Shown here: positions 320-53,107 of the stretch, piece after piece
How the letters are laid out: the number at the start of each line of letters is the position of its first letter
How positions within the stretch are numbered: position 1 is the first letter of the stretch
Assembly (NCBI GenBank): GCA_041667545.1
Contig: JBAYES010000005.1
Span: forward strand, 1 to 63,636
Direction of reading: 5' to 3'
DNA length: 63,636 nt
Source of the DNA: Candidatus Omnitrophota bacterium
GTDB taxonomy: Bacteria > Omnitrophota > Gorgyraeia > Tantalellales > Tantalellaceae
Notes under the pieces: generated by a model
What the model was told of the DNA's origin: nothing
The model's database searches: none
The model's input: only the letters and a program-made list of their open reading frames with translations
Program-made: the position numbers and the translations under genes

Positions 320-3300
320 ATGGCTAACCTGCAAAAAACAAAAACGTATATCTTCAAGAAGATATGCGCAAGTATTATCTGTCTGATCCTCGCATATGAT
401 CCGGCCTGGACATTATCCCCACCATTATTAACAAAGCCAATACAAATAAAGGTTTCTTCCGAGGAACTCGGAAAATCTACTGGGCAGGATGATGCGGGAA
501 ACATTACGTTCAGCGATGTTTTTGATGACACGGATAAGGCTCATATGATCGATATACTTAAATACGCCAAACATGAGATAGATGCCGGTTCTCTTGATCC
601 TGAACTGCCGGTAGTTGCGCGTATAGTCGACAGGCACGGAAATACAGTAGTCACCAGCAGCAGAAAGGTAAGAGATATCAAGAGCAGATATGGGGTTAAT
701 GCTTTTCATGCAGAGGTTCAGGCTATCCGGGAAGCTGAAGCCAGAGGATTTAAGGACTGGTCAGGGGCAACAATGTATACCAACTTGGAATCCTGTTATA
801 ACTGTTCAAAAGCCCTGACAGAGTACTACGGGTTCGGCCGGGTTGTCTACGGATTGAAAGATACGACCCTTGAGGAGTCAGACGACTATACAGCGGGATA
901 CAAAAGAGAAAATGTTGTTTTAGCGGCATGTGACGATAAGGATATAACCGCACAACTCGAAACGTTATTCGCTGTAGCCCTTCAAAAACAATATAATCAG
1001 CCCTCCGTCAAGCCTATCATGCACGCGACCGGCCTTAAGGTTTCGGGAGCTTTTCGCGAGCTGTTACGAAAAAATTATGGAGAAGATGTCCAGATAGTGG
1101 CATTTAACGCAGACCTGTGGGTTGAAAAAGGGCGAAAAACTCCATGGATAGACCATCATGGCCAGGTAAAAGACACCGAAGAACGCGATATGTTCCGTCA
1201 TATAGAGTGGCACAAGCAGAATTTGAACCCGGCCAAAAAACACCTGCTCGTAATAGTCGGCGGGTATCAACATGCCGCAGAAGCGAGAGAAAAGATAATA
1301 AACGATGATATTTTCGAACACGAAAAAATAATCATTTATGAGCAGAGCCCTGATTTTAAATGGTTAGAATCAGATTTTACAATTGATCCCGATGTAGACA
1401 TGTCCCAATATTTGGGATACAGCCTGCATACGGGAACAGAACGTCGATTTAACAACTCTTACACGGTTGCCGCGATATGCCGGGCGATAGAAAAGAACAT
1501 TTCTCTTAATGACCGGGAAGCCATAAATAACATCTACACCTGGGTGACATCATCTCCGAGTGATGATGTAGAGATCACACTGGGATCCCATCAAGTGATG
1601 ATCGATATTCCCAAAGAGGGTCTGGCGGTAAGATATTTTGATCCCGCCGAGGCCAATATCGTTACGCCTTATTCCGATCTATCCGGACTTTTAACAAAGG
1701 TTGTCAGCTCTCGATTGCACAGGCAGGTCATAACCAGGATAAAAGCTTTGCCTTACACTTCAGCAGGCGCAGTGTATGGCGAGGAGTTGAGAGAAAAAGA
1801 ATTTTACCCTGATAACAGCGCAATAATTGAGCAAGCCTACTCTGATCTAAGCGAAAACAGTTTTTCTGATGATGATCAAAGAAATATGGCCGACCTCGTC
1901 AGAATTGCTAAAGAAAAAATTGAAAAGGCTGAACTTGATAGCCGATTGCCTGTAGTGGCAAGGATCGTTGATAAGAATGGCAATGTGATCGCAACATCTA
2001 CCAGAACTAAATTGAGTAAGCCAAGTAAATATGGAGTGAAAGCTCTTCATGCCGAAGTGTGCGTTATTCGTGAGGCAGAGGCCGCAGGATTTGCTGACTG
2101 GGCAAACGTGACGATGTATGTGTTGATCGATTCCTGCTACACGTGCTCTAGAGCCATTACGGAATTTTATCCTTTCAAACGAGTAGTATATGGTGTTGAG
2201 GATCCAACCCTTGCCTATCATTCCCGAAATAAAGAAGGTTACGCCGATAACGGAGTTGTATTGGTGGAATGTAGCGATGAATCTCTTCAACGAGAAATCC
2301 GATCCTTATTTAATACGATATTCCAGAACGAGCCGCGCGACACACCCTTAGGCCGGGAAATGATAGCCAGGGAAAAAGAAGCAGTAAAACATTTTCGCGA
2401 TGAATATCAGGAAATTTTCGGTGAAGATATTCAGGTTACAACTTTTTCCGCAGATTTATGGGCGAAAAATAAAATGGACAAAAAAACCAATGAATGCCTT
2501 TTTGCGCATCTTGAATGGTTTAAACAAGACCTTAATCCCAATAAAAAATATGTGCTGTTGATAATCGGCGAGGGAACGCATTGCGAAGAAGCTCGCCGTA
2601 AAATAATCAGCGAAGGTATTTTTAAAGACGAAAATATATTAATATACAAGCCGAATATATCGCCGAAGGCAGTTAGTAGTAAGCCTGTTAAGTTAGCGAT
2701 AATAGCGCCTCGTTCTATAAGAGGACACGGTGAAACTCTTCTCAATGCCTTTGGGGAAGTTGGGTCCGGTTTAGTAGAAGTTTCCATGGAAATACCCGGC
2801 CAGGAAGAAACAATATCGGCTTTTGCGGAGAGGATCAGGAAATCCGGCTACGACCTTGCCTTGGTCGCTCTTCATGGAGCGCACAATGAAGAACCGGTAG
2901 CTTTTGAGGATTTCGGATGCGACGTATGTCTTTTACCCATTCGCCCCGGGGAAGTTCTTCTCAGATCTCGCGAGGGAACTTACGACAGGGAAGCGTGGAA
3001 CAGAATTTTTAAAAAGGCCCGAGCCGTAATACTTCTTGGGAAAGCCAGGATCCCGGACTACGATCAATTATCCGACAGGGTAATGGCGGTTCCTCTCGGG
3101 TTCAGTAAAATACCGGACTCTCCGGCCAGGGATAAACACTTCGAGGAAGGTGTTGTTATAGGGGCTCGGACCTTATGGTCAGAAATGCGAAGCATGTATG
3201 ACATAAAAGCGCTTGTGCGTGAGATAAGGAGGCAGCAAGGGGATGGCAGCAAGACGTTCGGATACATCGCCGGGCGTTTCGACGAATACGCGCATCCCGA

Positions 3301-4648
3301 GACCCGGAAAATAGTCAATGAATTCGAGGAATTGAGGTCAAGTCCGGATTGTTTGATCTTGAATGCCGGGAAAATAGAAGAGGCCTACAAGAAAGAAGGA
3401 GGATTTAACGATCTGGCGTCATTCAAGCGGTGGATATCCGATAGACTTAAAGAAAAGGGGGCGATGGTAGTTATAGTGGAAGGGGATATCGAAGACGAAG
3501 AATTAAGAAGGCTGGAGGCTTCGATATTTGATTTCAGCAATGAAATGTATCACGAGATCATGCAGGGTTTTGCCCCGAAAGATGAATATTCCGCGGCCAT
3601 CCACAGAAACGCCGGGCAAAGCATAGCAATAGGGTTTGATTCTGATGCTATACGTGACATGAAAGATGAAGGAATCGGCATTATAAGCGTACAGTATGAG
3701 GATAATAAAGCGGATTTTGCCGCGGCCGCAAAGGAGATGATCTGGTATATAACTAACCCGTCTGAATATTATGCCAGGCTTGAAAGAACCTGGAATGCTG
3801 CCCGGAACTATACCACCAAACATATGGGACAACAATATCTGGATGTAGTGATAGAAGCGTTACATAACAAGGACGCGCGGCAGGACGCTGTTAAGAATTA
3901 CGCAGATTTCATAAACAAAAACAAATCTTTACTCCACAAACTGCTCGGCGAAAATAAAGAGGATACATTAGTAAGGGTTCCGATAGAAGCGATCGAATCT
4001 GTGGGAATAGACAATATAAGAGACTTCCTTGAGACATTGCAAACAGCGCCTAACGGGTATGTTGAATTGTTCTACATGACAGGTATCGACGAAATCCCAG
4101 GCAATATGTACGGAAAATATGGTCTGGAGAAAAAAGAATTGCCTAAAGAGTTCAAGCGCGCCAGAAAGAATACGATCACTTTGTTCCCGGCTTTTAAAGG
4201 AGAAGATATAGATCGATCGACCATAGGTTTAAGGCTTGGAAATGTTAACATCTCTCCGGACGATACCATTCTCTCCCCCATAGGACTGCAGAATGACCCC
4301 GCGGGCCTGATAAGGGCAACTATTTTTGGTCTGGCGATGATAGATGCGGCACGCTCCATAAAAGAGCCGCTGTGGCGTGTGAAGGCACAAAAACCCAAGG
4401 AATACAGGGCTCTAATGGATCGGATCCAGACGGCATTAGAATCTTATAAGTCTGTGTGCGATCCAGATGCGCCATTTGAGTTCACGCAGAGAGAAATGGA
4501 GGATATGTTCGGACTTATTTCGGGCGACATAAATTCCATAGTACGTTCCCTTAACAAGCTTATTAAACTTCTTCCCATTACACCGTTAAACGCCGAAGAA
4601 TTACGCAAGATCTACGAGCGTACAAGGGCAGTTCTAATGGCCGCATAA
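320..4648 (+). CDS. Giant multidomain protein with two CDA-fold (TadA/dCMP-deaminase-like) zinc-deaminase domains, a possible GT-B glycosyltransferase-like region and an unassigned C-terminal region
   Basis: Uninterrupted 1442-aa ORF. H-A-E at nt 707-715 and 2048-2056. C-x-x-C (SCYNC, SCYTC) at nt 794-805 and 2135-2146. Each deaminase domain is followed by a second duplicated module (EDVQIVAFNADLW...LLVIVGGYQHAAEAREKII versus EDIQVTTFSADLW...VLLIIGEGTHCEEARRKII). One N-terminal hydrophobic segment (ICASIICLILAY). Confidence 0.8.
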   Translation: MANLQKTKTYIFKKICASIICLILAYDPAWTLSPPLLTKPIQIKVSSEELGKSTGQDDAGNITFSDVFDDTDKAHMIDILKYAKHEIDAGSLDPELPVVARIVDRHGNTVVTSSRKVRDIKSRYGVNAFHAEVQAIREAEARGFKDWSGATMYTNLESCYNCSKALTEYYGFGRVVYGLKDTTLEESDDYTAGYKRENVVLAACDDKDITAQLETLFAVALQKQYNQPSVKPIMHATGLKVSGAFRELLRKNYGEDVQIVAFNADLWVEKGRKTPWIDHHGQVKDTEERDMFRHIEWHKQNLNPAKKHLLVIVGGYQHAAEAREKIINDDIFEHEKIIIYEQSPDFKWLESDFTIDPDVDMSQYLGYSLHTGTERRFNNSYTVAAICRAIEKNISLNDREAINNIYTWVTSSPSDDVEITLGSHQVMIDIPKEGLAVRYFDPAEANIVTPYSDLSGLLTKVVSSRLHRQVITRIKALPYTSAGAVYGEELREKEFYPDNSAIIEQAYSDLSENSFSDDDQRNMADLVRIAKEKIEKAELDSRLPVVARIVDKNGNVIATSTRTKLSKPSKYGVKALHAEVCVIREAEAAGFADWANVTMYVLIDSCYTCSRAITEFYPFKRVVYGVEDPTLAYHSRNKEGYADNGVVLVECSDESLQREIRSLFNTIFQNEPRDTPLGREMIAREKEAVKHFRDEYQEIFGEDIQVTTFSADLWAKNKMDKKTNECLFAHLEWFKQDLNPNKKYVLLIIGEGTHCEEARRKIISEGIFKDENILIYKPNISPKAVSSKPVKLAIIAPRSIRGHGETLLNAFGEVGSGLVEVSMEIPGQEETISAFAERIRKSGYDLALVALHGAHNEEPVAFEDFGCDVCLLPIRPGEVLLRSREGTYDREAWNRIFKKARAVILLGKARIPDYDQLSDRVMAVPLGFSKIPDSPARDKHFEEGVVIGARTLWSEMRSMYDIKALVREIRRQQGDGSKTFGYIAGRFDEYAHPETRKIVNEFEELRSSPDCLILNAGKIEEAYKKEGGFNDLASFKRWISDRLKEKGAMVVIVEGDIEDEELRRLEASIFDFSNEMYHEIMQGFAPKDEYSAAIHRNAGQSIAIGFDSDAIRDMKDEGIGIISVQYEDNKADFAAAAKEMIWYITNPSEYYARLERTWNAARNYTTKHMGQQYLDVVIEALHNKDARQDAVKNYADFINKNKSLLHKLLGENKEDTLVRVPIEAIESVGIDNIRDFLETLQTAPNGYVELFYMTGIDEIPGNMYGKYGLEKKELPKEFKRARKNTITLFPAFKGEDIDRSTIGLRLGNVNISPDDTILSPIGLQNDPAGLIRATIFGLAMIDAARSIKEPLWRVKAQKPKEYRALMDRIQTALESYKSVCDPDAPFEFTQREMEDMFGLISGDINSIVRSLNKLIKLLPITPLNAEELRKIYERTRAVLMAA

Positions 4649-6512: not shown

Positions 6513-6974
6513 TCACTTTCTGGTTTTTAAAGATTCCCTGTGTTCCGCAAGTTTCTCACGCAGGACATCATCACTTAAAGACATTATCCGCGCCGCATAT
6601 ATGGCGGCATTTACCGCTCCGCTTGATCCTATGGCCATGCAGCCTACGGGGATCCCTTTCGGCATTTGTACGATCGAATGTAAAGCGTCTACTCCGTTCA
6701 ACGCGCCTCCCGTCATCGGCACGCCAATAACGGGGAGTAATGTCTGCGCCGCCGCGCATCCAGGCAATGCCGCAGCCATTCCGGCGCCGGCAATAATAAC
6801 TGAAAACTCTTTTTCATCCAAAGACTTAATATAATCATGCAGGGCCTCAGGATCCCTGTGGGCGGATAATACCTTAAAATCATATTGGATATCAAATTGC
6901 TTTAAGACCTCGAGGCCTTTTTCCATTTGCTCTTTGTCCGACATTGAACCGACAATTACCGCGACCTTTTTCAT
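6513..6974 (-). CDS. purE: N5-carboxyaminoimidazole ribonucleotide mutase
   Basis: 153 aa. VAVIVGSMSD...VLSAHR...IIAGAGMAAALPG...IGVP are classic PurE motifs. purC is in the same operon. Confidence 0.9.
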   Translation of the reverse strand: MKKVAVIVGSMSDKEQMEKGLEVLKQFDIQYDFKVLSAHRDPEALHDYIKSLDEKEFSVIIAGAGMAAALPGCAAAQTLLPVIGVPMTGGALNGVDALHSIVQMPKGIPVGCMAIGSSGAVNAAIYAARIMSLSDDVLREKLAEHRESLKTRK

Positions 6975-7015
6975 GTTTTTCTCCTTTTTTGTTATGAGCT
7001 CCGGCGAATATCAAA

Positions 7016-7531
7016 CTACAGGTTCTCAATTTTGAAAACGCCCGTTTCGTAGTTGAATATAAAGAACTTTTTTATCGGGAGCGAATATTTCTTTTCCATT
7101 GCCCCGAGGTTCTTGAGAATAACGTTCCCGCGGGACTTTTCTTTAAAGGCGGGGAAGAATATCTGCCCGACCTTATTTTTGCCGTGCAATTTTCCCCGGC
7201 AGCCATGCGATAATGTCCGCAGCAAAAAATCAAGTTGTTGAAGACGTTTGTTTTTTCCGCCGGGGTCATAATCGATCGCGCATAATGACCAAACGCCCGA
7301 AAGCCCGAAAGAATCTATGATGTTCAACTCATTCGGCAGCAGCAGAGAGCTGTCTGCAAAAACCCCGAGAATATCAACGGTAGAGGCCGGTTTTTTTGCG
7401 GTTTTTTGTTTGTTTTGAAATATGAGGAGCTGATGCACCTCGCGCCATATTTTATGAAAAACCGCTAAGTCCCGAACAACTAATAAAAATAGCGGTTCAT
7501 TCTTCCGATCCATCGATCCCCTCGCCGGCAT
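7016..7531 (-). CDS. Hypothetical protein between purC and purE
   Basis: 171-aa ORF abutting the purC stop with no gap, on the same strand as the operon. I recognise no family motif. Confidence 0.4.
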   Translation of the reverse strand: MPARGSMDRKNEPLFLLVVRDLAVFHKIWREVHQLLIFQNKQKTAKKPASTVDILGVFADSSLLLPNELNIIDSFGLSGVWSLCAIDYDPGGKNKRLQQLDFLLRTLSHGCRGKLHGKNKVGQIFFPAFKEKSRGNVILKNLGAMEKKYSLPIKKFFIFNYETGVFKIENL

Positions 7532-8488
7532 TTATAGACCGCCTTTCATGACTTGTCCATTATCGGCAAACTCGATCTCCTCCGTCCCGGCTAACTTCTT
7601 AAAAATATCACGATAGATCATGGATGTTTTTGCGGCTATTTCCTCGGGTAATTCCGGGCCGGGAGGTGTTTTCCGCCAATCCAAAGACTCAAGATAATCC
7701 CGGACATACTGTTTGTCCAAGCTCAACTGCTCTTTTCCCGGCTGATATGAGTTAGCAGGCCAGAACCTTGAACTGTCGGGGGTCAGGACCTCGTCGATAA
7801 GCACGACTTTATCGTTAATGAGGCCAAATTCAAACTTGGTATCCGCGATCAAAATCCCCTTTGTTCCGGCAAATTCAACAGCCTCTCTATAAAGGCGCAA
7901 TGAAATATCCCGTACTTGTCCCGCGAGATCATTTCCGAGTAAAGTCTCAGCTTCAGCATAACTTATATTCACATCATGCCCGACAACCGCTTTAGTGGAA
8001 GGAGTAAATATCGGCTCAGGCAGCCAATCGCATTTTTTTAGTCCTGAGGGCAGAACATGACCGCAAACTTTTCCCGTTTTTTGATAATCCTTCCATCCCG
8101 AGCCAACCAGAAACCCCCGCACAATACATTCGATCGGTAAAGGTTTGGCCCGATATGCCAGCACGGACCTGCCTTCAAGGATGTGCCCAAAATCACTTAA
8201 TAATTTATTACCCAACCCCATGTTATTTATATCGGTTGTTATCAAAGGGTTTGACACCACATGTTTTAATTTGTTAAACCAGAATAATGAAATTTGATTG
8301 AGAACCCGGCCTTTGTAAGGGATGGGGGTAGGCATGACGACATCGAAGGCGCTGATGCGGTCGCTTGTAACCAGCAAAAGCTTATCTTCGTCTATAGCAT
8401 AAATGTCTCTGACTTTACCCCGGGCTATTAAAGGCAGAGGCAGATCTGTTTCTAAAACAACTTCGTGTTTTTCCGTCTTGATGCCCAT
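7532..8488 (-). CDS. purC: Phosphoribosylaminoimidazole-succinocarboxamide (SAICAR) synthase, long form
   Basis: 318 aa. GKVRDIY...LLLVTSDRISAFD...ADTKFEFG...LIDEVLTPDSSRFW are conserved PurC motifs. Confidence 0.9.
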   Translation of the reverse strand: MGIKTEKHEVVLETDLPLPLIARGKVRDIYAIDEDKLLLVTSDRISAFDVVMPTPIPYKGRVLNQISLFWFNKLKHVVSNPLITTDINNMGLGNKLLSDFGHILEGRSVLAYRAKPLPIECIVRGFLVGSGWKDYQKTGKVCGHVLPSGLKKCDWLPEPIFTPSTKAVVGHDVNISYAEAETLLGNDLAGQVRDISLRLYREAVEFAGTKGILIADTKFEFGLINDKVVLIDEVLTPDSSRFWPANSYQPGKEQLSLDKQYVRDYLESLDWRKTPPGPELPEEIAAKTSMIYRDIFKKLAGTEEIEFADNGQVMKGGL

Positions 8489-9763: not shown

Positions 9764-11653
9764 CTAATCATCGTTGATAAGAGGGTTAGCGGGAATAAGC
9801 CCGTTGTAATCGTCTATATTCCCGCCTTGCATGCAGCATTCAATGATCTTTTTGCCCCGCGGATCAATTTTTTCTTTGAGGAATTTTAACAGTTCCCGAT
9901 GAAAGAATTCAGTGAGGAGCGCGGCTCCCTTATCATACGCTTCTTCGCCGACTTCAGGCTGACGATCGACCCGGAGAAACCAGTCGCCGATCATTTGTCC
10001 TTCGATCATCATAGAGCGAACGGCGTAACCCAGAAGGGGACAGCGGGCCGGGACTAACTGCTCGCTGGGGAATTTTGCCATCCCCCTGCGGGCGAGATAT
10101 TCGCGGGCGATCCATTGGGGCATAAAACCAACTTCCCAGGCCCCAATATGCTGGTTGGGGCAGAGAATATAACGTGTGTCTGTATTGGAAATGAACTGGT
10201 CGAGCAAAAGATTCGCCTGTTCGATGAAAGAGCCGGGAGCGAACGGGCCGTAGGAGCCGACTCCCTCAGAGCTCATTCCTTGTGTCTGGATGATGCTGGG
10301 ATTGCCATACCCGCGAGGCGCGACAAGCCGCCACAGCCATGCCAGGGATGGCGGCAGAAATTGCAGCATTCCAAGTATGCCATAGGTGGGATTCTCTTTT
10401 GTAGAGGGCGGCGTTCGAACGCCAAAACTTCTTACATCAATAGTTGCCGGGCCGTTCAAAATATTCGGGACAACATCCCTTGGTATTATGACCCGAGGAT
10501 TGGGACAGGGGATACCCGGAGCATCTTCGACATGTTCCCAGATCAACGCGGTAGAGCCCGGAGCGGCATCAATATTTAAAAAAAGCAGAGGCCTTGAAGG
10601 ATGAGTTGTAATTTTCTCCAAATGAGGATCGGTGCCGTATTCTGTAATGTGGTTGACCCTGATAAACCAGGCGTCTTCGGCGTCGATCAGAGCCAGTTTC
10701 CCGTTTTTCTTCTGCAAAGAGGGAAGACATAAAGCCATGTCGTCATTAACGGGGCGTAATTCGCAGGCGCGGGGCAAAATGATATATCGCCTTTCTCCCG
10801 TGCTAAGATTTTTGCCCAAAAGAATGCTTCCGTCATGCTCGCGGTGGAGATTTTCCAGCATTTCGCTTTTTCCGCCGCCGCTCGCCCCTTCGTGCATAAT
10901 GGAGACTTTGTTGTCATAGGGAGTGATCACCTGCACCGTCGAACAATGGGCTGTCACCCAATTTTCCCGTTCACCCAGATTGATCAGCATGCCGTAAACA
11001 CCTTTTTTAGCGCTGGGGCCGGGATAAAGGTTATAACTGAACATCTCATACAAATTATTTAAACGGTTATGCACAACAACTTGTTTGCCTTCAAAATGAC
11101 TATGACGGAACGGAGGAGCGACATAGATGACGGCCTTCGGCTCAAAATTTTCCGGTAATTGGTCTGGATCAAGTATTCCCTGTAATAAGGCGAGTCCCAG
11201 CGCGAAAAAACCGGCATTGGAAGGCGCAACCACAACACTTTCAATACCATTCTCTTCAAAGCCGGCATTAAAGAAATATACGGATAGCTCTTGCGTTTTT
11301 AACCAATCAAACGTTTCCCGGCGAACTCGATGAAAATCGCTTTTAAAGCGCTCCTTGTATAGGCTTTTATTTGTTGGAAGTTCATCGGCTATCACCATGC
11401 ATTCAGGGTCTCTCCTGCGCATGTACGGCTCAACATAATTGGCGGCAATTCCGTTGCGTACCCGGCAAACACGGGCTTCGAGAACAGTTCCTTTACCCGG
11501 AACATCATAAGCCACATCATGCCATCCGTTCTTTTCGTCGCGACAGGCCAGATCTACGAGCATGTCCGCGCTGCTCGCGATGGTATAGGACGGGCAGTTG
11601 GACAAAACATCCGCCGCTTCCGGCGGTAACTTAAATTTATTCAGATCTTGCAT
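9764..11653 (-). CDS. Large P-loop protein, DUF4914-like (HprK/PEPCK-type GxSGxGKSE loop)
   Basis: 629-aa ORF. HEGASGGGKSEM resembles the HPr-kinase/PEPCK phosphate loop. The family name is from memory and not verified. Confidence 0.45.
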   Translation of the reverse strand: MQDLNKFKLPPEAADVLSNCPSYTIASSADMLVDLACRDEKNGWHDVAYDVPGKGTVLEARVCRVRNGIAANYVEPYMRRRDPECMVIADELPTNKSLYKERFKSDFHRVRRETFDWLKTQELSVYFFNAGFEENGIESVVVAPSNAGFFALGLALLQGILDPDQLPENFEPKAVIYVAPPFRHSHFEGKQVVVHNRLNNLYEMFSYNLYPGPSAKKGVYGMLINLGERENWVTAHCSTVQVITPYDNKVSIMHEGASGGGKSEMLENLHREHDGSILLGKNLSTGERRYIILPRACELRPVNDDMALCLPSLQKKNGKLALIDAEDAWFIRVNHITEYGTDPHLEKITTHPSRPLLFLNIDAAPGSTALIWEHVEDAPGIPCPNPRVIIPRDVVPNILNGPATIDVRSFGVRTPPSTKENPTYGILGMLQFLPPSLAWLWRLVAPRGYGNPSIIQTQGMSSEGVGSYGPFAPGSFIEQANLLLDQFISNTDTRYILCPNQHIGAWEVGFMPQWIAREYLARRGMAKFPSEQLVPARCPLLGYAVRSMMIEGQMIGDWFLRVDRQPEVGEEAYDKGAALLTEFFHRELLKFLKEKIDPRGKKIIECCMQGGNIDDYNGLIPANPLINDD

Positions 11654-13080: not shown

Positions 13081-14325
13081 TCAAGCCCTGACCCCGGCTT
13101 CGTAGGCGGCGAGAGCTGAGGGGAAGGGGGATAGGGCTCTTTTGAGAACGCCTTGTAAGTGAGCGATGCATACTCCGTAATTGGTCACGGGTACTCCGTA
13201 TTTTCCGGCAAGATTTATCCTGCTCAGCATTTCTCTTCTGTTTATCATGCATCCGCCGCAATGAATGACGAGCTTGTATTCCCCGAGTGTTTCAGGATAA
13301 TCTTTACCCGCGTATACATCTATCTGTATGTCACAGCCCAGATATTGCCGGAGCCACCGGGGTATTTTAACCCTGCCGATATCGTCTTCCGCCGCGTGAT
13401 GAGAGCACGATTCGGCGATGAGGACCTTGTCGCCCTTTTTCAATTTGTCTATGGAACGCACTCCCTTCACCGCTTCGGTAAGGTCACCTTTATATCTGGA
13501 AAAAAGAATAGAGAATGTCGTACATTTCACTTCGGGAGGGGTGTCGGCTACGAACTTCATAACTACCTGGGAATCGCATATGGCGAGATCCGGCATTCGG
13601 TTTAAAATTGAAAAAACGCGGCTGTATTCTCTTTCTTTGACCACAAGGGTCATGGCGTCGTTATCAAGCGCGTCCCTTATAGTCTGGACCTGGGGGAGTA
13701 TGAGCCTTCCTTTGGGCGCCTGCAGATCTATAGGCACCACCAGCACCGCTATTCCTCCCGGAGGAATAAGGTCGCCCACTAAAGGAGGGGGTTTTAAAAA
13801 ATCAGACGGAACAAGATCTATGAGGTTTGCTTTTAGACCGTCAACGTACCGGTCTCTTTCGTATATATTTACGCTTGAAACAAGCAGGCATCCGGATGTC
13901 TTTTCCTTTACCAAAGATATAAAGTTTTCATCGGGATAGTTAGCATCTATTTTGTTTATGATGCCTATTAACGGCGTTCCTTTCTGTTCGCATTCACGCA
14001 ATACGGTCTCTTCGAAATGTCCCCACATGTCCGATTCTAAGATCAGACATACGATGTCGGCTCTGTTGAAGACTTTGCTTGTTTTCTCCAGCCGTTTTTC
14101 CCCCAGTACGGAGTTGTCATCGATGCCGGCGGTATCGAGAAAGATCACCGGGCCCAGAGGAAGCAATTCCATGGTCTTTTCCACTACATCGGTGGTGGTC
14201 CCCGGGACCGGACTTGTTATGGCTACTTCCTGGCCGGCTATCATGTTGAGAAAACTGGATTTTCCCACATTGGTCCTGCCGAAAACACCTATGTGAAGCC
14301 TTAAGGCCTTAGGAGCTTTGTCCAT
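13081..14325 (-). CDS. hydF: [FeFe]-hydrogenase H-cluster maturation GTPase HydF
   Basis: G1 loop GRTNVGKSS, G3 DTAG, NKID, and the C-terminal cluster motif CSHH...HCGGC (CxHx(n)HCxxC). Confidence 0.8.
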   Translation of the reverse strand: MDKAPKALRLHIGVFGRTNVGKSSFLNMIAGQEVAITSPVPGTTTDVVEKTMELLPLGPVIFLDTAGIDDNSVLGEKRLEKTSKVFNRADIVCLILESDMWGHFEETVLRECEQKGTPLIGIINKIDANYPDENFISLVKEKTSGCLLVSSVNIYERDRYVDGLKANLIDLVPSDFLKPPPLVGDLIPPGGIAVLVVPIDLQAPKGRLILPQVQTIRDALDNDAMTLVVKEREYSRVFSILNRMPDLAICDSQVVMKFVADTPPEVKCTTFSILFSRYKGDLTEAVKGVRSIDKLKKGDKVLIAESCSHHAAEDDIGRVKIPRWLRQYLGCDIQIDVYAGKDYPETLGEYKLVIHCGGCMINRREMLSRINLAGKYGVPVTNYGVCIAHLQGVLKRALSPFPSALAAYEAGVRA

Positions 14326-15697
14326 TATCCCTGTACCCCAGTGACATTAGATTTGCCGGTGATAAGATATCCCGCACCTTTTCAGCGCCGAGTTTTTCAT
14401 GCAGGAATTGTTTTATATCCTTTCTCCCCGAACATGAGAACTCATTTATAAGCTGTTCCACTTTTTCATACCCCAAATGGGGGAGAAAGGCCGTTATTAT
14501 GAGCGGGTTATCGGCAACGTATTTTTCACAGATCTTTTCATCAGCTTTTATGTTTTCCACATGCCGTCCCAGCATTTTGGACGTTCTTTCCAGTATGCTG
14601 AGAGCTCCCAGGATGCCGTATGAAAGAAGAGGCATGAACTCATTTATCTGCAGACTGCTTCGGGATGCCGCCTCAAAAACTATCCCTATATCGGCGTCGG
14701 CTTTTATCGCGCCCTGCAGAGCGCATTCAAATATAACGGGATTGACTTTGCATGGCATTATGGATGATCCTCCCTGTACTTTCGCGAGCGATATTTCTCC
14801 CAGGAGGCTCAATATTCTGATGTCATTGCATATTTTTATTATGTTGGAGGCATGAGCCCGTAAGATCCCCGCCACCTCTACGAACGCGTCACTGTTAGCC
14901 GTCTGGTCCACGGCGTTCTCGCCCCGGGTAAGGCCGGCTCCCGTTAGTTCTCTCAGCTTGTCTATAACCAGAAAAACGTATCTTCTGGGCGCGGTCAGAC
15001 CCGTTCCCACAGCGGTGCCGCCTATATTGACCTGTCTCATTCTTTCCCGGCAGTTAAAGATCCGCCATCTATCCCGGGCTATAGCTTCGGCGAAAGCGGA
15101 AAATTCAGCGCCCAGTGTCATCGGAACGGCTTCCCTCATTTCTGTCCTGCCGGTCTTGACTATACCGGCAAATTCCTTTTCTTTTATTTGGAAGGCGCCC
15201 TGGAGAACTTCTATTGACGAGCTTAGCGTCCATAGCCCTTCCAGGACCGCAACCTTGACCGCGGTCGGATATACATCATTTGTGGACTGGTGCATATTGA
15301 CATCTTCGATGGGGCGCACTAACAAATACTCCCCCTTTACTCCGCCGCCTATCTCTATGGCCCGGTTAGCTATAACCTCGTTCATGTTCATATTGGTGGA
15401 GGTCCCGGCGCCTCCCTGAAGGGCGTCAAGAGGAAATTCATCAATATGTCCGCCTCGTATTATTTCATCACAGGCCTTTAACATCATATCCGCTTTCTTT
15501 CTTTCCAGATAACCCGCTTCCAGATTGGCCAGACAGCATGCTTTTTTTACGGTGGCCAGGGCCCTTATCAGCAGAGGGCTTGTCCTCGAGCCCGATATAT
15601 CGAAATTATCCAAGGCCCTCTGGGTATGTATTCCCCATAACCGGTCTTTTGGGATGTTCTTCTCGCCGATATTATCTCTTTCGATCCTGAATTCCAT
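14309..15697 (-). CDS. Aspartate ammonia-lyase / class-II fumarase superfamily protein
   Basis: 462 aa with TNMNMNEV, HQSTNDVYPTA and the signature GSSIMPCKVNP. The 3-prime end overlaps the hydF start by 17 nt. Confidence 0.8.
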   Translation of the reverse strand: MEFRIERDNIGEKNIPKDRLWGIHTQRALDNFDISGSRTSPLLIRALATVKKACCLANLEAGYLERKKADMMLKACDEIIRGGHIDEFPLDALQGGAGTSTNMNMNEVIANRAIEIGGGVKGEYLLVRPIEDVNMHQSTNDVYPTAVKVAVLEGLWTLSSSIEVLQGAFQIKEKEFAGIVKTGRTEMREAVPMTLGAEFSAFAEAIARDRWRIFNCRERMRQVNIGGTAVGTGLTAPRRYVFLVIDKLRELTGAGLTRGENAVDQTANSDAFVEVAGILRAHASNIIKICNDIRILSLLGEISLAKVQGGSSIMPCKVNPVIFECALQGAIKADADIGIVFEAASRSSLQINEFMPLLSYGILGALSILERTSKMLGRHVENIKADEKICEKYVADNPLIITAFLPHLGYEKVEQLINEFSCSGRKDIKQFLHEKLGAEKVRDILSPANLMSLGYRDNGQSS

Positions 15698-52525: not shown

Positions 52526-52657
52526 GCGGGCGAAGGTTTAATTTGAACCTGTGATCGCCCGGGAATGTAGTGGTCGGGAAAAGCGTACGGGCTCTTTAAA
52601 GGAGTGAGATTTCCGCGTCCACTCTGTTCGCTCGAAATGACCGGAGGGGAGCGCGGG

Positions 52658-53107
52658 ATGAACATACATGAAGAATACATGGCGCAGGCGCTACGGGAAG
52701 CTCAAAAGGCATATGAAAGCGATGAAGTTCCCGTAGGGGCGGTTATCGTGCGTGACGGGGAAATAATAGCCAGGGCGCATAATCAGATAAAACTTCTCAA
52801 GGACCCCACAGCGCATGCCGAGATGATCGCCATAACCCAGGCCGCGGCATATCTTGAAAATGAGAGATTGACAGGATGTGAGCTTTATGTCACGTTGGAA
52901 CCGTGTTCAATGTGCGTCGGAGCGGCTGTTCTGGCGCGGTTAAACAAAATAGTTTTCGGAACGACCGACCCCAAGACGGGAGCGTGCGGAAGCGTGGTGA
53001 GCCTCACTAAACCCGGATTATTTAACCATGACATAGAAGTCGCGGGCGGTGTTATGGAAGACGTCTGTTGTGATCTTATGCGCCGGTTTTTCGCGTCCAA
53101 AAGATAG
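52658..53107 (+). CDS. tadA: tRNA adenosine(34) deaminase
   Basis: EVPVGAVIV, HAEMIAI, LEPCSMCVGA; about 150 aa. The upstream in-frame GTG extension (52604) was rejected. Confidence 0.9.
   Translation: MNIHEEYMAQALREAQKAYESDEVPVGAVIVRDGEIIARAHNQIKLLKDPTAHAEMIAITQAAAYLENERLTGCELYVTLEPCSMCVGAAVLARLNKIVFGTTDPKTGACGSVVSLTKPGLFNHDIEVAGGVMEDVCCDLMRRFFASKR

Follow-up and report, generated by a model that had tools for sequence, protein, structure and literature searches.

Why a single bacterial polypeptide should carry two zinc-dependent deaminase domains together with what reads like a sugar transferase is the question raised by a gene at the beginning of a 63,636-nucleotide stretch of DNA from a Candidatus Omnitrophota bacterium (assembly GCA_041667545.1, contig JBAYES010000005.1), the whole of which is referred to below as the window. 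The gene occupies positions 320..4648 of the forward strand (stop codon included) and was confirmed in the open reading frame (ORF) listing as a single unbroken ORF with an ATG start, encoding 1442 aa. The original prediction, made from the letters of the window, described the product as a tandemly duplicated deaminase unit followed by a glycosyltransferase-like region and an orphan C-terminus, and leaned towards toxins and conflict systems. In this study, we report that the protein probably belongs to a family, not described before, of modular multi-enzyme proteins in which enzyme cassettes are shuffled. This shuffling probably produced the double deaminase as a by-product, and the family that the double deaminase exposed is the more interesting result.

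Homologues and constant ends of the family

Homologues were sought by a word-indexed search over 5.8 billion sequences and by an exhaustive phmmer search of aa 243-1442 over 1.84 billion representatives. The former, run with the window protein, returned six homologues, all of them large mosaics, and those with a source label came from metagenome-assembled genomes (MAGs) of Candidatus Omnitrophota. Word-indexed searches with alignments of the C-terminal domain (CTD) or of the glycosyltransferase (GT-B) region yielded just 11 and 2 proteins, respectively, mainly fragments. The phmmer search detected 306 representatives at E<=1e-3, including 119 at E<=1e-30, and modules were mapped on the best 152 of the 306. 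The labels of homologues named Omnitrophota MAGs, two MAGs of 'uncultured Planctomycetia' and a single Endomicrobiales MAG; the amoebal members of the GT-B subfamily aside, all source-labelled homologues belonged to Omnitrophota or PVC-group MAGs. A narrow CTD alignment led to five related loci, and one MAG held at least two loci.

The family is recognised by its ends. CTD was found in 107 of the best 152 proteins (215-3773 aa in length), where it invariably formed the extreme C-terminus, the last ~250 aa, and closed with the consensus (V/A)(L/I)(I/T)AA. A second conserved module, designated SYT, was found in 68 of them, usually at residues ~40-170. When the N-termini were aligned, they showed a basic n-region and a hydrophobic h-region, often with SWA at its end; an L(S/A)P motif comes next, in some cases after a low-complexity linker, and SYT follows. 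A comparable leader was aligned in 59 of the 65 SYT-bearing members with an initial M. L(S/A)P stood behind the h-region in 48 of 60 proteins with both a signal peptide and SYT and in 9 of 26 signal-peptide-like proteins lacking SYT, the background rate being 6.5% per 67-aa window. Together, leader, L(S/A)P, SYT and CTD bracket over 100 protein clusters. Among 40 SYT...CTD proteins, a Pfam census recorded radical SAM (8), B12-binding (5), HAD (5), deaminase (5) and PHP (4) domains, several methyltransferase families, and, once each, LpxC, DUF362, NAD-epimerase/dehydratase, EPSP-synthase-like, GPI and NTP-transferase domains; the cassettes of further members include CheB methylesterase and metallophosphoesterase. 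From so varied a census it follows that the constant ends bracket almost any cytoplasm-type enzyme.

The window protein has the leader with TLSPP, SYT and the terminal CTD, as detected by hidden Markov models (HMMs) and motif (Table 1). Its SYT is atypically placed, since the leader and the first deaminase unit have displaced it inward. A hydrophobicity scan resolved the leader into a K-rich n-region, an 11-residue h-region (ICASIICLILA) and a c-region (YDPAW), and revealed no further transmembrane-like segment in the protein. A single N-terminal hydrophobic helix had been put forward as a sign of membrane anchoring or export; the hydrophobic stretch is present, but the K-rich n-region and the presence of only 11 hydrophobic residues lead us to read it as signal-peptide-like and not as a transmembrane helix. 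TLSPP goes with the leader rather than with SYT. Separately, L(S/A)P(P/S/E) was seen to trail the leader even in SYT-less proteins (e.g. P0005 and P0118), and the motif may mark a leader-linked site of processing or recognition.

The suspicion that the architecture was unfamiliar proved correct. The exact combination of modules occurred in 1 of the best 152 proteins, the window protein itself, which was also the only one of them to contain all five modules or to have a deaminase and a GT-B region in the same chain. Pfam scans of the separate segments at E<=10 otherwise gave chance-level matches only (DUF5117, TOTE S1CSD).

Table 1. Modules of the 1442-aa protein, and the separate TadA gene of the window
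Feature	Residues (aa)	Position in window	Strand	Basis or remark
Signal-peptide-like leader	1-30	320..409	+	Hydrophobicity scan
TLSPP, an L(S/A)P motif	31-35	410..424	+	Family motif linked to leader
Deaminase domain 1, cytidine deaminase (CDA) fold	64-220	509..979	+	PF00383; family HMM 2.4e-67
POST1, companion module	240-351	1037..1372	+	Alignment with family units
SYT	366-495	1415..1804	+	HMM 6.8e-43 at aa 376-486
Deaminase domain 2	511-665	1850..2314	+	PF00383, family HMM, motifs
POST2	686-790	2375..2689	+	Unit alignment, family HMM
Divergent GT-B glycosyltransferase	788-1182	2681..3865	+	AlphaFold2 and Foldseek fold match
CTD, ending AVLMAA	1187-1442	3878..4645	+	HMM 1.6e-100
TadA		52604-53107	+	GTG start; NF008113 156.5 bits, cut-off 150

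The structures of the two end modules were predicted with AlphaFold2 (AF2) from an artificial concatenation of window aa 346-500 and 1187-1442, aligned with 38 full-length natural members; direct SYT-CTD fusions also occur naturally (P0068, P0125). Despite 45 disordered residues, the model reached a mean predicted local distance difference test (pLDDT) of 83.4 and a predicted template modelling score (pTM) of 0.80, which suggests, as a lead, that SYT and CTD dock on each other. SYT was modelled as two helices followed by five strands (pLDDT 72-91), and CTD, with pLDDT mostly >90, as a beta-alpha sub-domain with four strands and, after it, a helical bundle. R33, N98, T99, D140 and D209 (CTD numbering), the invariant polar residues, lie at strand ends of this model, placed as in ligand-binding alpha/beta domains. 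No Pfam family matched CTD, the CTD profile matched nothing among the PDB sequences, and Foldseek returned no match of the SYT+CTD model at E<=0.001 in either PDB or BFVD. The best matches below threshold were SIS-type phosphoglucose isomerases in PDB (E 0.037, probability 0.38) and GlmS in BFVD (E 0.023), and the recurrence of SIS-type proteins is taken as a lead only. The last part of the protein, which had been left unplaced, is thus an orphan as described, but it spans 256 aa and not the ~330 aa first estimated.

Deaminase units, GT-B domain and mosaic origin

Both deaminase domains belong to the CDA fold. As originally reported, HAE is encoded at nt 707-715 and 2048-2056, and CxxC at nt 794-805 (CYNC) and 2135-2146 (CYTC), with S instead of P ahead of each CxxC. 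PF00383 matched twice (E 9e-26, 90 bits; cut-off 25), and 8 of 8 zinc-binding and catalytic residues are intact, the H, E, C and C positions being kept in both copies. The second module proposed to follow each deaminase was also recovered: a ~100-aa module, here designated POST, lies inside the alignment of unit 1 (aa ~67-345) with unit 2 (aa ~515-790), which are 43% identical over 287 aa (E 1e-78). The deaminase+POST unit was detected in 26 of the best 152 proteins, including giants of 3548, 5108 and 7388 aa (P0048, P0065 and P0066), and POST invariably trails the deaminases of this clade. The clade signature is HAE-x-AIREAE-x-GF-x-DW, usually accompanied by SCxxC(S/N)(K/R), and the POST consensus is FG-x-D-(I/V)-Q-V-x-x-F-D-A-D-L-W ... 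L-F-x-H-L-E-W-x-K-Q-x-L-N-P-x-K-x-H-(V/L)-L-L-I-x-G, in which only Q, D and G are invariant. By sequence, then, this is a distinct deaminase clade with an obligate companion module.

POST gave no Pfam match, and its profile gave no significant match among PDB sequences. Three candidate identities were considered and rejected: weak PDB profile matches to SRP54 (E 0.04) or a PACT coiled-coil were judged spurious, a HAD-like assignment through FDADLW was discarded since the window copies have N or S in place of the first D, and a P-loop in NPxKKHVLLIVG was discarded because GK(S/T) is absent.

A clade profile built from 20 deaminase units was searched against PDB sequences and matched TadA (8e-11), T4 dCMP deaminase (5e-9) and yeast-type cytosine deaminases (1e-7, aligned over their full length), as well as nucleoside and guanosine deaminases and RibD. 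It was about equally far from the TadA, dCMP, cytosine, guanosine and RibD deaminases. The closest PDB sequence relatives of deaminase domain 2 alone were the TadA structures 2a8n and 2b3j, and PHROGs matches were dCMP deaminases showing generic core similarity only. All NCBIfam equivalog models scored the window deaminases far under their cut-offs. HD or PHP phosphoesterase modules share a polypeptide with the deaminase unit in P0004, P0006, P0007, P0009 and P0014, and an HD-like region (LLLHDVGK) was spotted by eye in P0003. A PRK/uridine-kinase-family gene adjoins P0007; at this locus, that gene and a Pho regulon come after the family gene. In P0004 (aa ~230-245), the two zinc cysteines of one deaminase copy have been lost (NSSLLSPRK), although HAE, POST and the remainder of the unit are still there; judged by these residues, this copy may be non-catalytic and structural.

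The GT-B-like character of the following region was confirmed at the level of the fold. The AF2 model of the region, based on a 13-sequence alignment, had pLDDT 90.4 and pTM 0.87, and the top 50 Foldseek matches listed for PDB all had the GT-B fold (E 4e-9 to 6e-6). They were mostly GT4-type transferases, together with glycogen synthases and UDP-GlcNAc 2-epimerases; the named ones, 6eji, PimA (2gej), GlgM (6tvp), MshA (3c4q) and BshA (5d00), aligned over the full length with TM-scores of 0.55-0.60, and PimA, MshA, BshA and GlgM matched at E of about 1e-8. Pfam gave no match in the segment of the window protein, the best of the 13 subfamily members reaching E 0.035, and the profile found nothing significant among PDB sequences. 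Membership of GT4 (Glycos_transf_1/Glyco_transf_4) was not detected, and EX7E lacks conservation at its second E. The region occurs in 25 of the best 152 proteins, both within giants and as stand-alone proteins of 385-670 aa, the latter without the leader. As a side observation, protosteliid amoebae were seen to encode stand-alone members of this subfamily (PRP77609.1 in Planoprotostelium fungivorum, and a transcript in Protostelium nocturnum), and a further copy lies within an Endomicrobiales protein of 3040 aa (P0102, P0138, P0067). On sequence grounds, this spread suggests either inter-domain transfer or an unrecognised widespread glycosyltransferase family.

Comparison of the modules with their nearest relatives revealed a mosaic. 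The window protein is 71% identical to P0002 in SYT, 72% in GT-B and 83% in CTD, but the two proteins have nothing homologous between SYT and GT-B, where P0002 has an HD-like module and the window protein deaminase 2 and POST2. With P0008, the identity is 81% in GT-B and falls to 44% in CTD. A neighbour-joining tree of 26 deaminase units placed unit 2 with P0014, P0005, P0006 and P0040 at 50-55% identity (P0014 55%, P0005 50%), and unit 1 with P0043 (66%, its closest relative), P0009 and P0058. Unit 2 is also 53% identical to a unit of P0009, and the two window units are 42-43% identical to each other. Tandem duplication of a two-domain unit, which had been deduced from their resemblance, is unsupported, because the units are not each other's nearest relatives and because the 130-aa conserved SYT module separates them. 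P0043 has 563 aa and carries its own signal peptide directly before a unit-1-type deaminase+POST. It is the second of two tandem family genes on L012 (4128-5819), the first of which, at 1495-3939, encodes SYT-metallophosphoesterase-CTD; it is possibly frameshift-truncated, since the L012 contig is a 2x-coverage long-read assembly. The simplest history compatible with these identities would be that a P0043-like [leader + unit 1] was grafted before a P0002/P0008-like SYT-X-GT-B-CTD gene whose slot X carried a deaminase unit, that is, cassette exchange and not tandem duplication in place.

Proposed function and alternative explanations

In the reading that we favour, the window protein follows a family plan composed of a Sec-type signal-peptide-like leader, L(S/A)P, SYT, a variable enzyme array and CTD at the extreme C-terminus. 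The cassettes would be independently acting enzymes. Each deaminase would remove an amino group by hydrolysis from a free base, nucleoside or nucleotide, the cytosine/pyrimidine type being the most likely, and probably not from tRNA or DNA, and GT-B would move a sugar off a nucleotide-sugar donor. SYT and CTD would form a shared localisation or assembly device and would not be catalytic partners of the deaminases; their docking would probably loop the enzyme array between them. Since modules recombine freely across the family, the association of a double deaminase with a glycosyltransferase is regarded as a product of cassette shuffling and not as a dedicated pathway or toxin.

Several points weigh against this reading. 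The deaminase clade scores equally well against TadA and against nucleotide deaminases, and a macromolecular substrate might be conceivable through POST, which has no family match. The docking of SYT and CTD is indicated by the pTM alone, obtained on an artificial concatenation. A Sec-type leader ahead of cassettes that require S-adenosylmethionine (SAM), NDP-sugars, NAD or Fe-S/B12 is a paradox, and ~25 CTD proteins, some of them possibly fragments, show neither leader nor SYT. The gene lies at the start of its contig, so that upstream neighbours, for example possible partners, are out of view. Finally, the function and localisation of the window protein are both ones that we infer.

The tension between leader and cofactors separates the two principal alternatives, delivery to another cell and a membrane-tethered metabolon. 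The former would make the protein a secreted effector resembling polymorphic toxins, exported by its leader and delivered to prey or host by SYT and CTD, where the deaminases would deplete or mutate nucleotides or nucleic acids. Cofactor-dependent cassettes behind an export signal would fit action in the cytoplasm of another cell, the signal-peptide-like leader is conserved across the family, paralogues occur several to a genome and family genes can lie in tandem, and predatory or epibiotic lifestyles with exported giant multi-enzyme proteins have been proposed for Omnitrophota in the literature. Toxin-type deaminase families of Pfam were matched as well: MafB19-deam scored 57 bits (cut-off 27), overlapped by the stronger PF00383, and XOO_2897 and SNAD4 remained below their cut-offs. 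However, the deaminases are internal and not at the C-terminal tip, which is taken by CTD. No immunity-like gene was found downstream, where the adjoining gene is convergent and encodes an Sbt_1-type transporter, nor was any conserved neighbour, small or otherwise, found across the four family loci examined, the neighbours differing each time. Pfam detected no known trafficking domain, and the cassettes of family mates are biosynthetic and not toxic in kind (LpxC, epimerases, GPI, NTP transferase, methyltransferases). For these reasons, and in view of the sub-threshold defence scores given below, the toxin or conflict-system role first suggested for the protein was not borne out, and we consider an effector unlikely.

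A related proposal, tentative and likewise carrying a low probability, is that, in Omnitrophota cells of ultra-small size and perhaps predatory or epibiotic habit, SYT and CTD serve as recognition or translocation handles of an undescribed route for export, delivery or self-assembly. If this were true, more than 100 clusters would represent Sec-led, cofactor-dependent enzymes (radical SAM, B12, GT-B, deaminase and phosphoesterase modules among them) at work beyond the cytoplasm of the producer, for instance in host or prey cells. The window protein would then be one of these effectors, aimed at nucleotides, and CTD would be a new fold.

In the second alternative, the N-terminus would anchor a cytoplasmic metabolon to the membrane, in which nucleotide and nucleotide-sugar metabolism would serve envelope or glycan synthesis and SYT and CTD would oligomerise or, by binding a ligand, regulate it. 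Every cassette type uses cytoplasmic co-substrates, the leader is absent from the stand-alone GT-B relatives and from some CTD proteins, and many long Omnitrophota proteins are read in 10.64898/2026.06.07.730766 as membrane-anchored with their bulk in the cytoplasm. The Rossmann-like sub-domain of CTD, with invariant R, N-T, D and G at strand ends, and its weak matches to SIS/phosphosugar isomerases would agree with a ligand-binding role. These matches are non-significant, however, and the N-terminal features of the family (a K/R-rich n-region, an h-region of 11-16 residues and a ...SWA c-region followed by acidic residues) predict export under the positive-inside rule. A tethered metabolon is accordingly held to be rather improbable.

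Far less probable is an assignment to an anti-phage deaminase depleting dCTP or other nucleotides, to a RibD- or guanine-deaminase-type fusion, or to a second tRNA deaminase. The scores in their favour were weak and lay far under the cut-offs: 24 bits for the NCBIfam anti-phage dCTP deaminase (cut-off 400), 34 bits for TadA (NF008113, cut-off 150) and 22 bits for RibD (TIGR00326, cut-off 156), with 17 bits for the PADLOC dCTPase. These matches span only ~50-100 aa of the zinc-binding core (~40-50 aa for the anti-phage dCTP deaminase and the dCTPase). No kinase or RibD_C domain is present, and no defence island was seen among the neighbours in the window (purE, purC, gmhB-like, transporters); the biosynthetic fusion once named as the finding that would overturn the original prediction was therefore not encountered. 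That the protein is not the tRNA-A34 enzyme, as had been argued from a separately encoded housekeeping tadA, was upheld, the deaminases being embedded in a 1442-aa protein and a bona fide TadA being encoded elsewhere in the window (Table 1); this TadA was also the only other window sequence to match the deaminase-unit profile (5e-10).

That the ORF is an assembly chimera, or a decaying and functionless pseudogene fusion, is close to negligible in our estimate: its contig-end position, its unique architecture and the lack of any homologue covering the POST1-SYT or the POST2-GT-B junction would allow for it, but the identical 1442-aa product is also encoded on a 76-kb ENA contig and on a 4.7-kb Logan contig, the frame is unbroken with all catalytic and zinc residues intact, each module matches its own family profile at E<=1e-34, and the ORF has neither a DNA-level internal repeat nor similarity to the rest of the window that could have misled assembly.

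With respect to its surroundings, the gene starts ~340 nt from the beginning of the longest contig and its neighbours are visible downstream only; genes neighbouring the ORF in the window are also recorded by NCBI/JGI sources. The downstream genes are housekeeping genes on the opposite strand, in the order Sbt_1-type transporter, GmhB-like HAD phosphatase, purE, purC and MFS transporter. No type II secretion system (T2SS), pilus or PilZ genes were found downstream, the upstream side being cut by the contig end. Near the deaminase protein, genes of purine biosynthesis (purE, purC and a Lyase_1/purB-like gene) were seen both in the window (6513-8488 and 14309-15697) and at the P0005 locus, and the kinase-family gene and Pho regulon at the P0007 locus belong to the same observation (coordinates outside the window: L003, 17996-22783); shared ancestry or a link with nucleotide metabolism could account for it. 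Two further ORFs on the reverse strand gave no NCBIfam match: one of 171 aa between purE and purC (7016-7531) and one encoding a 629-aa DUF4914 protein (9764-11653). Between 16000 and 44000, the GC skew reaches strongly positive values (0.13-0.28) for ~28 kb and the long ORFs are nearly all on the forward strand, which is consistent with co-orientation of genes with replication.

Comparison with known systems

The individual enzymes resemble well-known families and depart from them in definite ways. The deaminases share the H-A-E and C-x-x-C motifs and the ~150-aa domain of TadA, yeast-type cytosine and dCMP deaminases, but they differ in their own clade signature, the constant POST, the setting in a large protein and equivalog scores far under the cut-offs. 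The GT-B region has the two-Rossmann-domain fold of GT4-type enzymes (Foldseek E 4e-9 to 1e-6), with an 'IPHGF' junction and a C-terminal K..E...H / D...EG patch at the positions of the GT4 donor-binding motifs; unlike GT4, it is only ~10-13% identical, has no Pfam match in 13 members, does not conserve EX7E and includes amoebozoan members. The deaminase clade with its obligate companion and this Pfam-invisible subfamily common to amoebae are newly defined here.

In its logic, namely a leader, a variable middle, a constant C-terminal domain and module exchange, the family is like the CTD cargo of the type IX secretion system (T9SS), autotransporters and MARTX toxins. The likeness does not extend to sequence or fold, since CTD is modelled as alpha/beta plus a helical bundle and not as the beta-sandwich or beta-barrel of T9SS cargo and autotransporters. 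Pfam found no T9SS, type V secretion system or RTX signatures in the window protein, and the cargo of the family consists of cytoplasm-type enzymes whose secretion is only predicted.

The closest parallel is with the giant proteins of the same phylum. Two preprints (West-Roberts et al. 2023 bioRxiv, 10.1101/2023.11.21.568195; 10.64898/2026.06.07.730766) describe Omnitrophota giants, called 'multi-enzyme metabolic cluster' or Archaeovorin-type proteins, in which signal peptides or transmembrane helices precede a series of glycosyltransferase, methyltransferase, HAD, HD, NUDIX and radical SAM domains. The window protein shares with them the phylum label of its homologues, the gathering of unrelated enzymes on one polypeptide, the N-terminal signal peptide or transmembrane segment and a highly mosaic make-up; it has three enzyme domains and a leader, and its deaminase+POST unit recurs inside the 3.5-7.4-kaa (thousand-residue) giants P0048, P0065 and P0066. 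It differs in being 7-100 times shorter (1.4 kaa, the Archaeovorin giants having at least 10,000 aa), in having defined constant ends and a deaminase unit, and in that the PilZ, T2SS or pilus neighbours of the giants were not found downstream. Term searches of the two preprints turned up no mention of 'deaminase', and the few passages on 'C-terminal' describe no conserved C-terminal domain, a negative of limited reach. The family also sharpens the question of why Sec-type signal peptides should precede radical-SAM, SAM-, NAD- and NDP-sugar-dependent enzymes, and it offers a kilobase-sized entry into these mega-proteins, as expression, localisation and structure solution are feasible for the constant ends, which is not so for giants of 10-100 kaa. 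The window protein can thus be placed as a kilobase-scale relative of the Omnitrophota multi-enzyme giants, the novelty of which lies not in the double deaminase but in the family and in its orphan CTD, a domain confidently modelled by AF2 yet matched by nothing in Pfam, PDB or BFVD.

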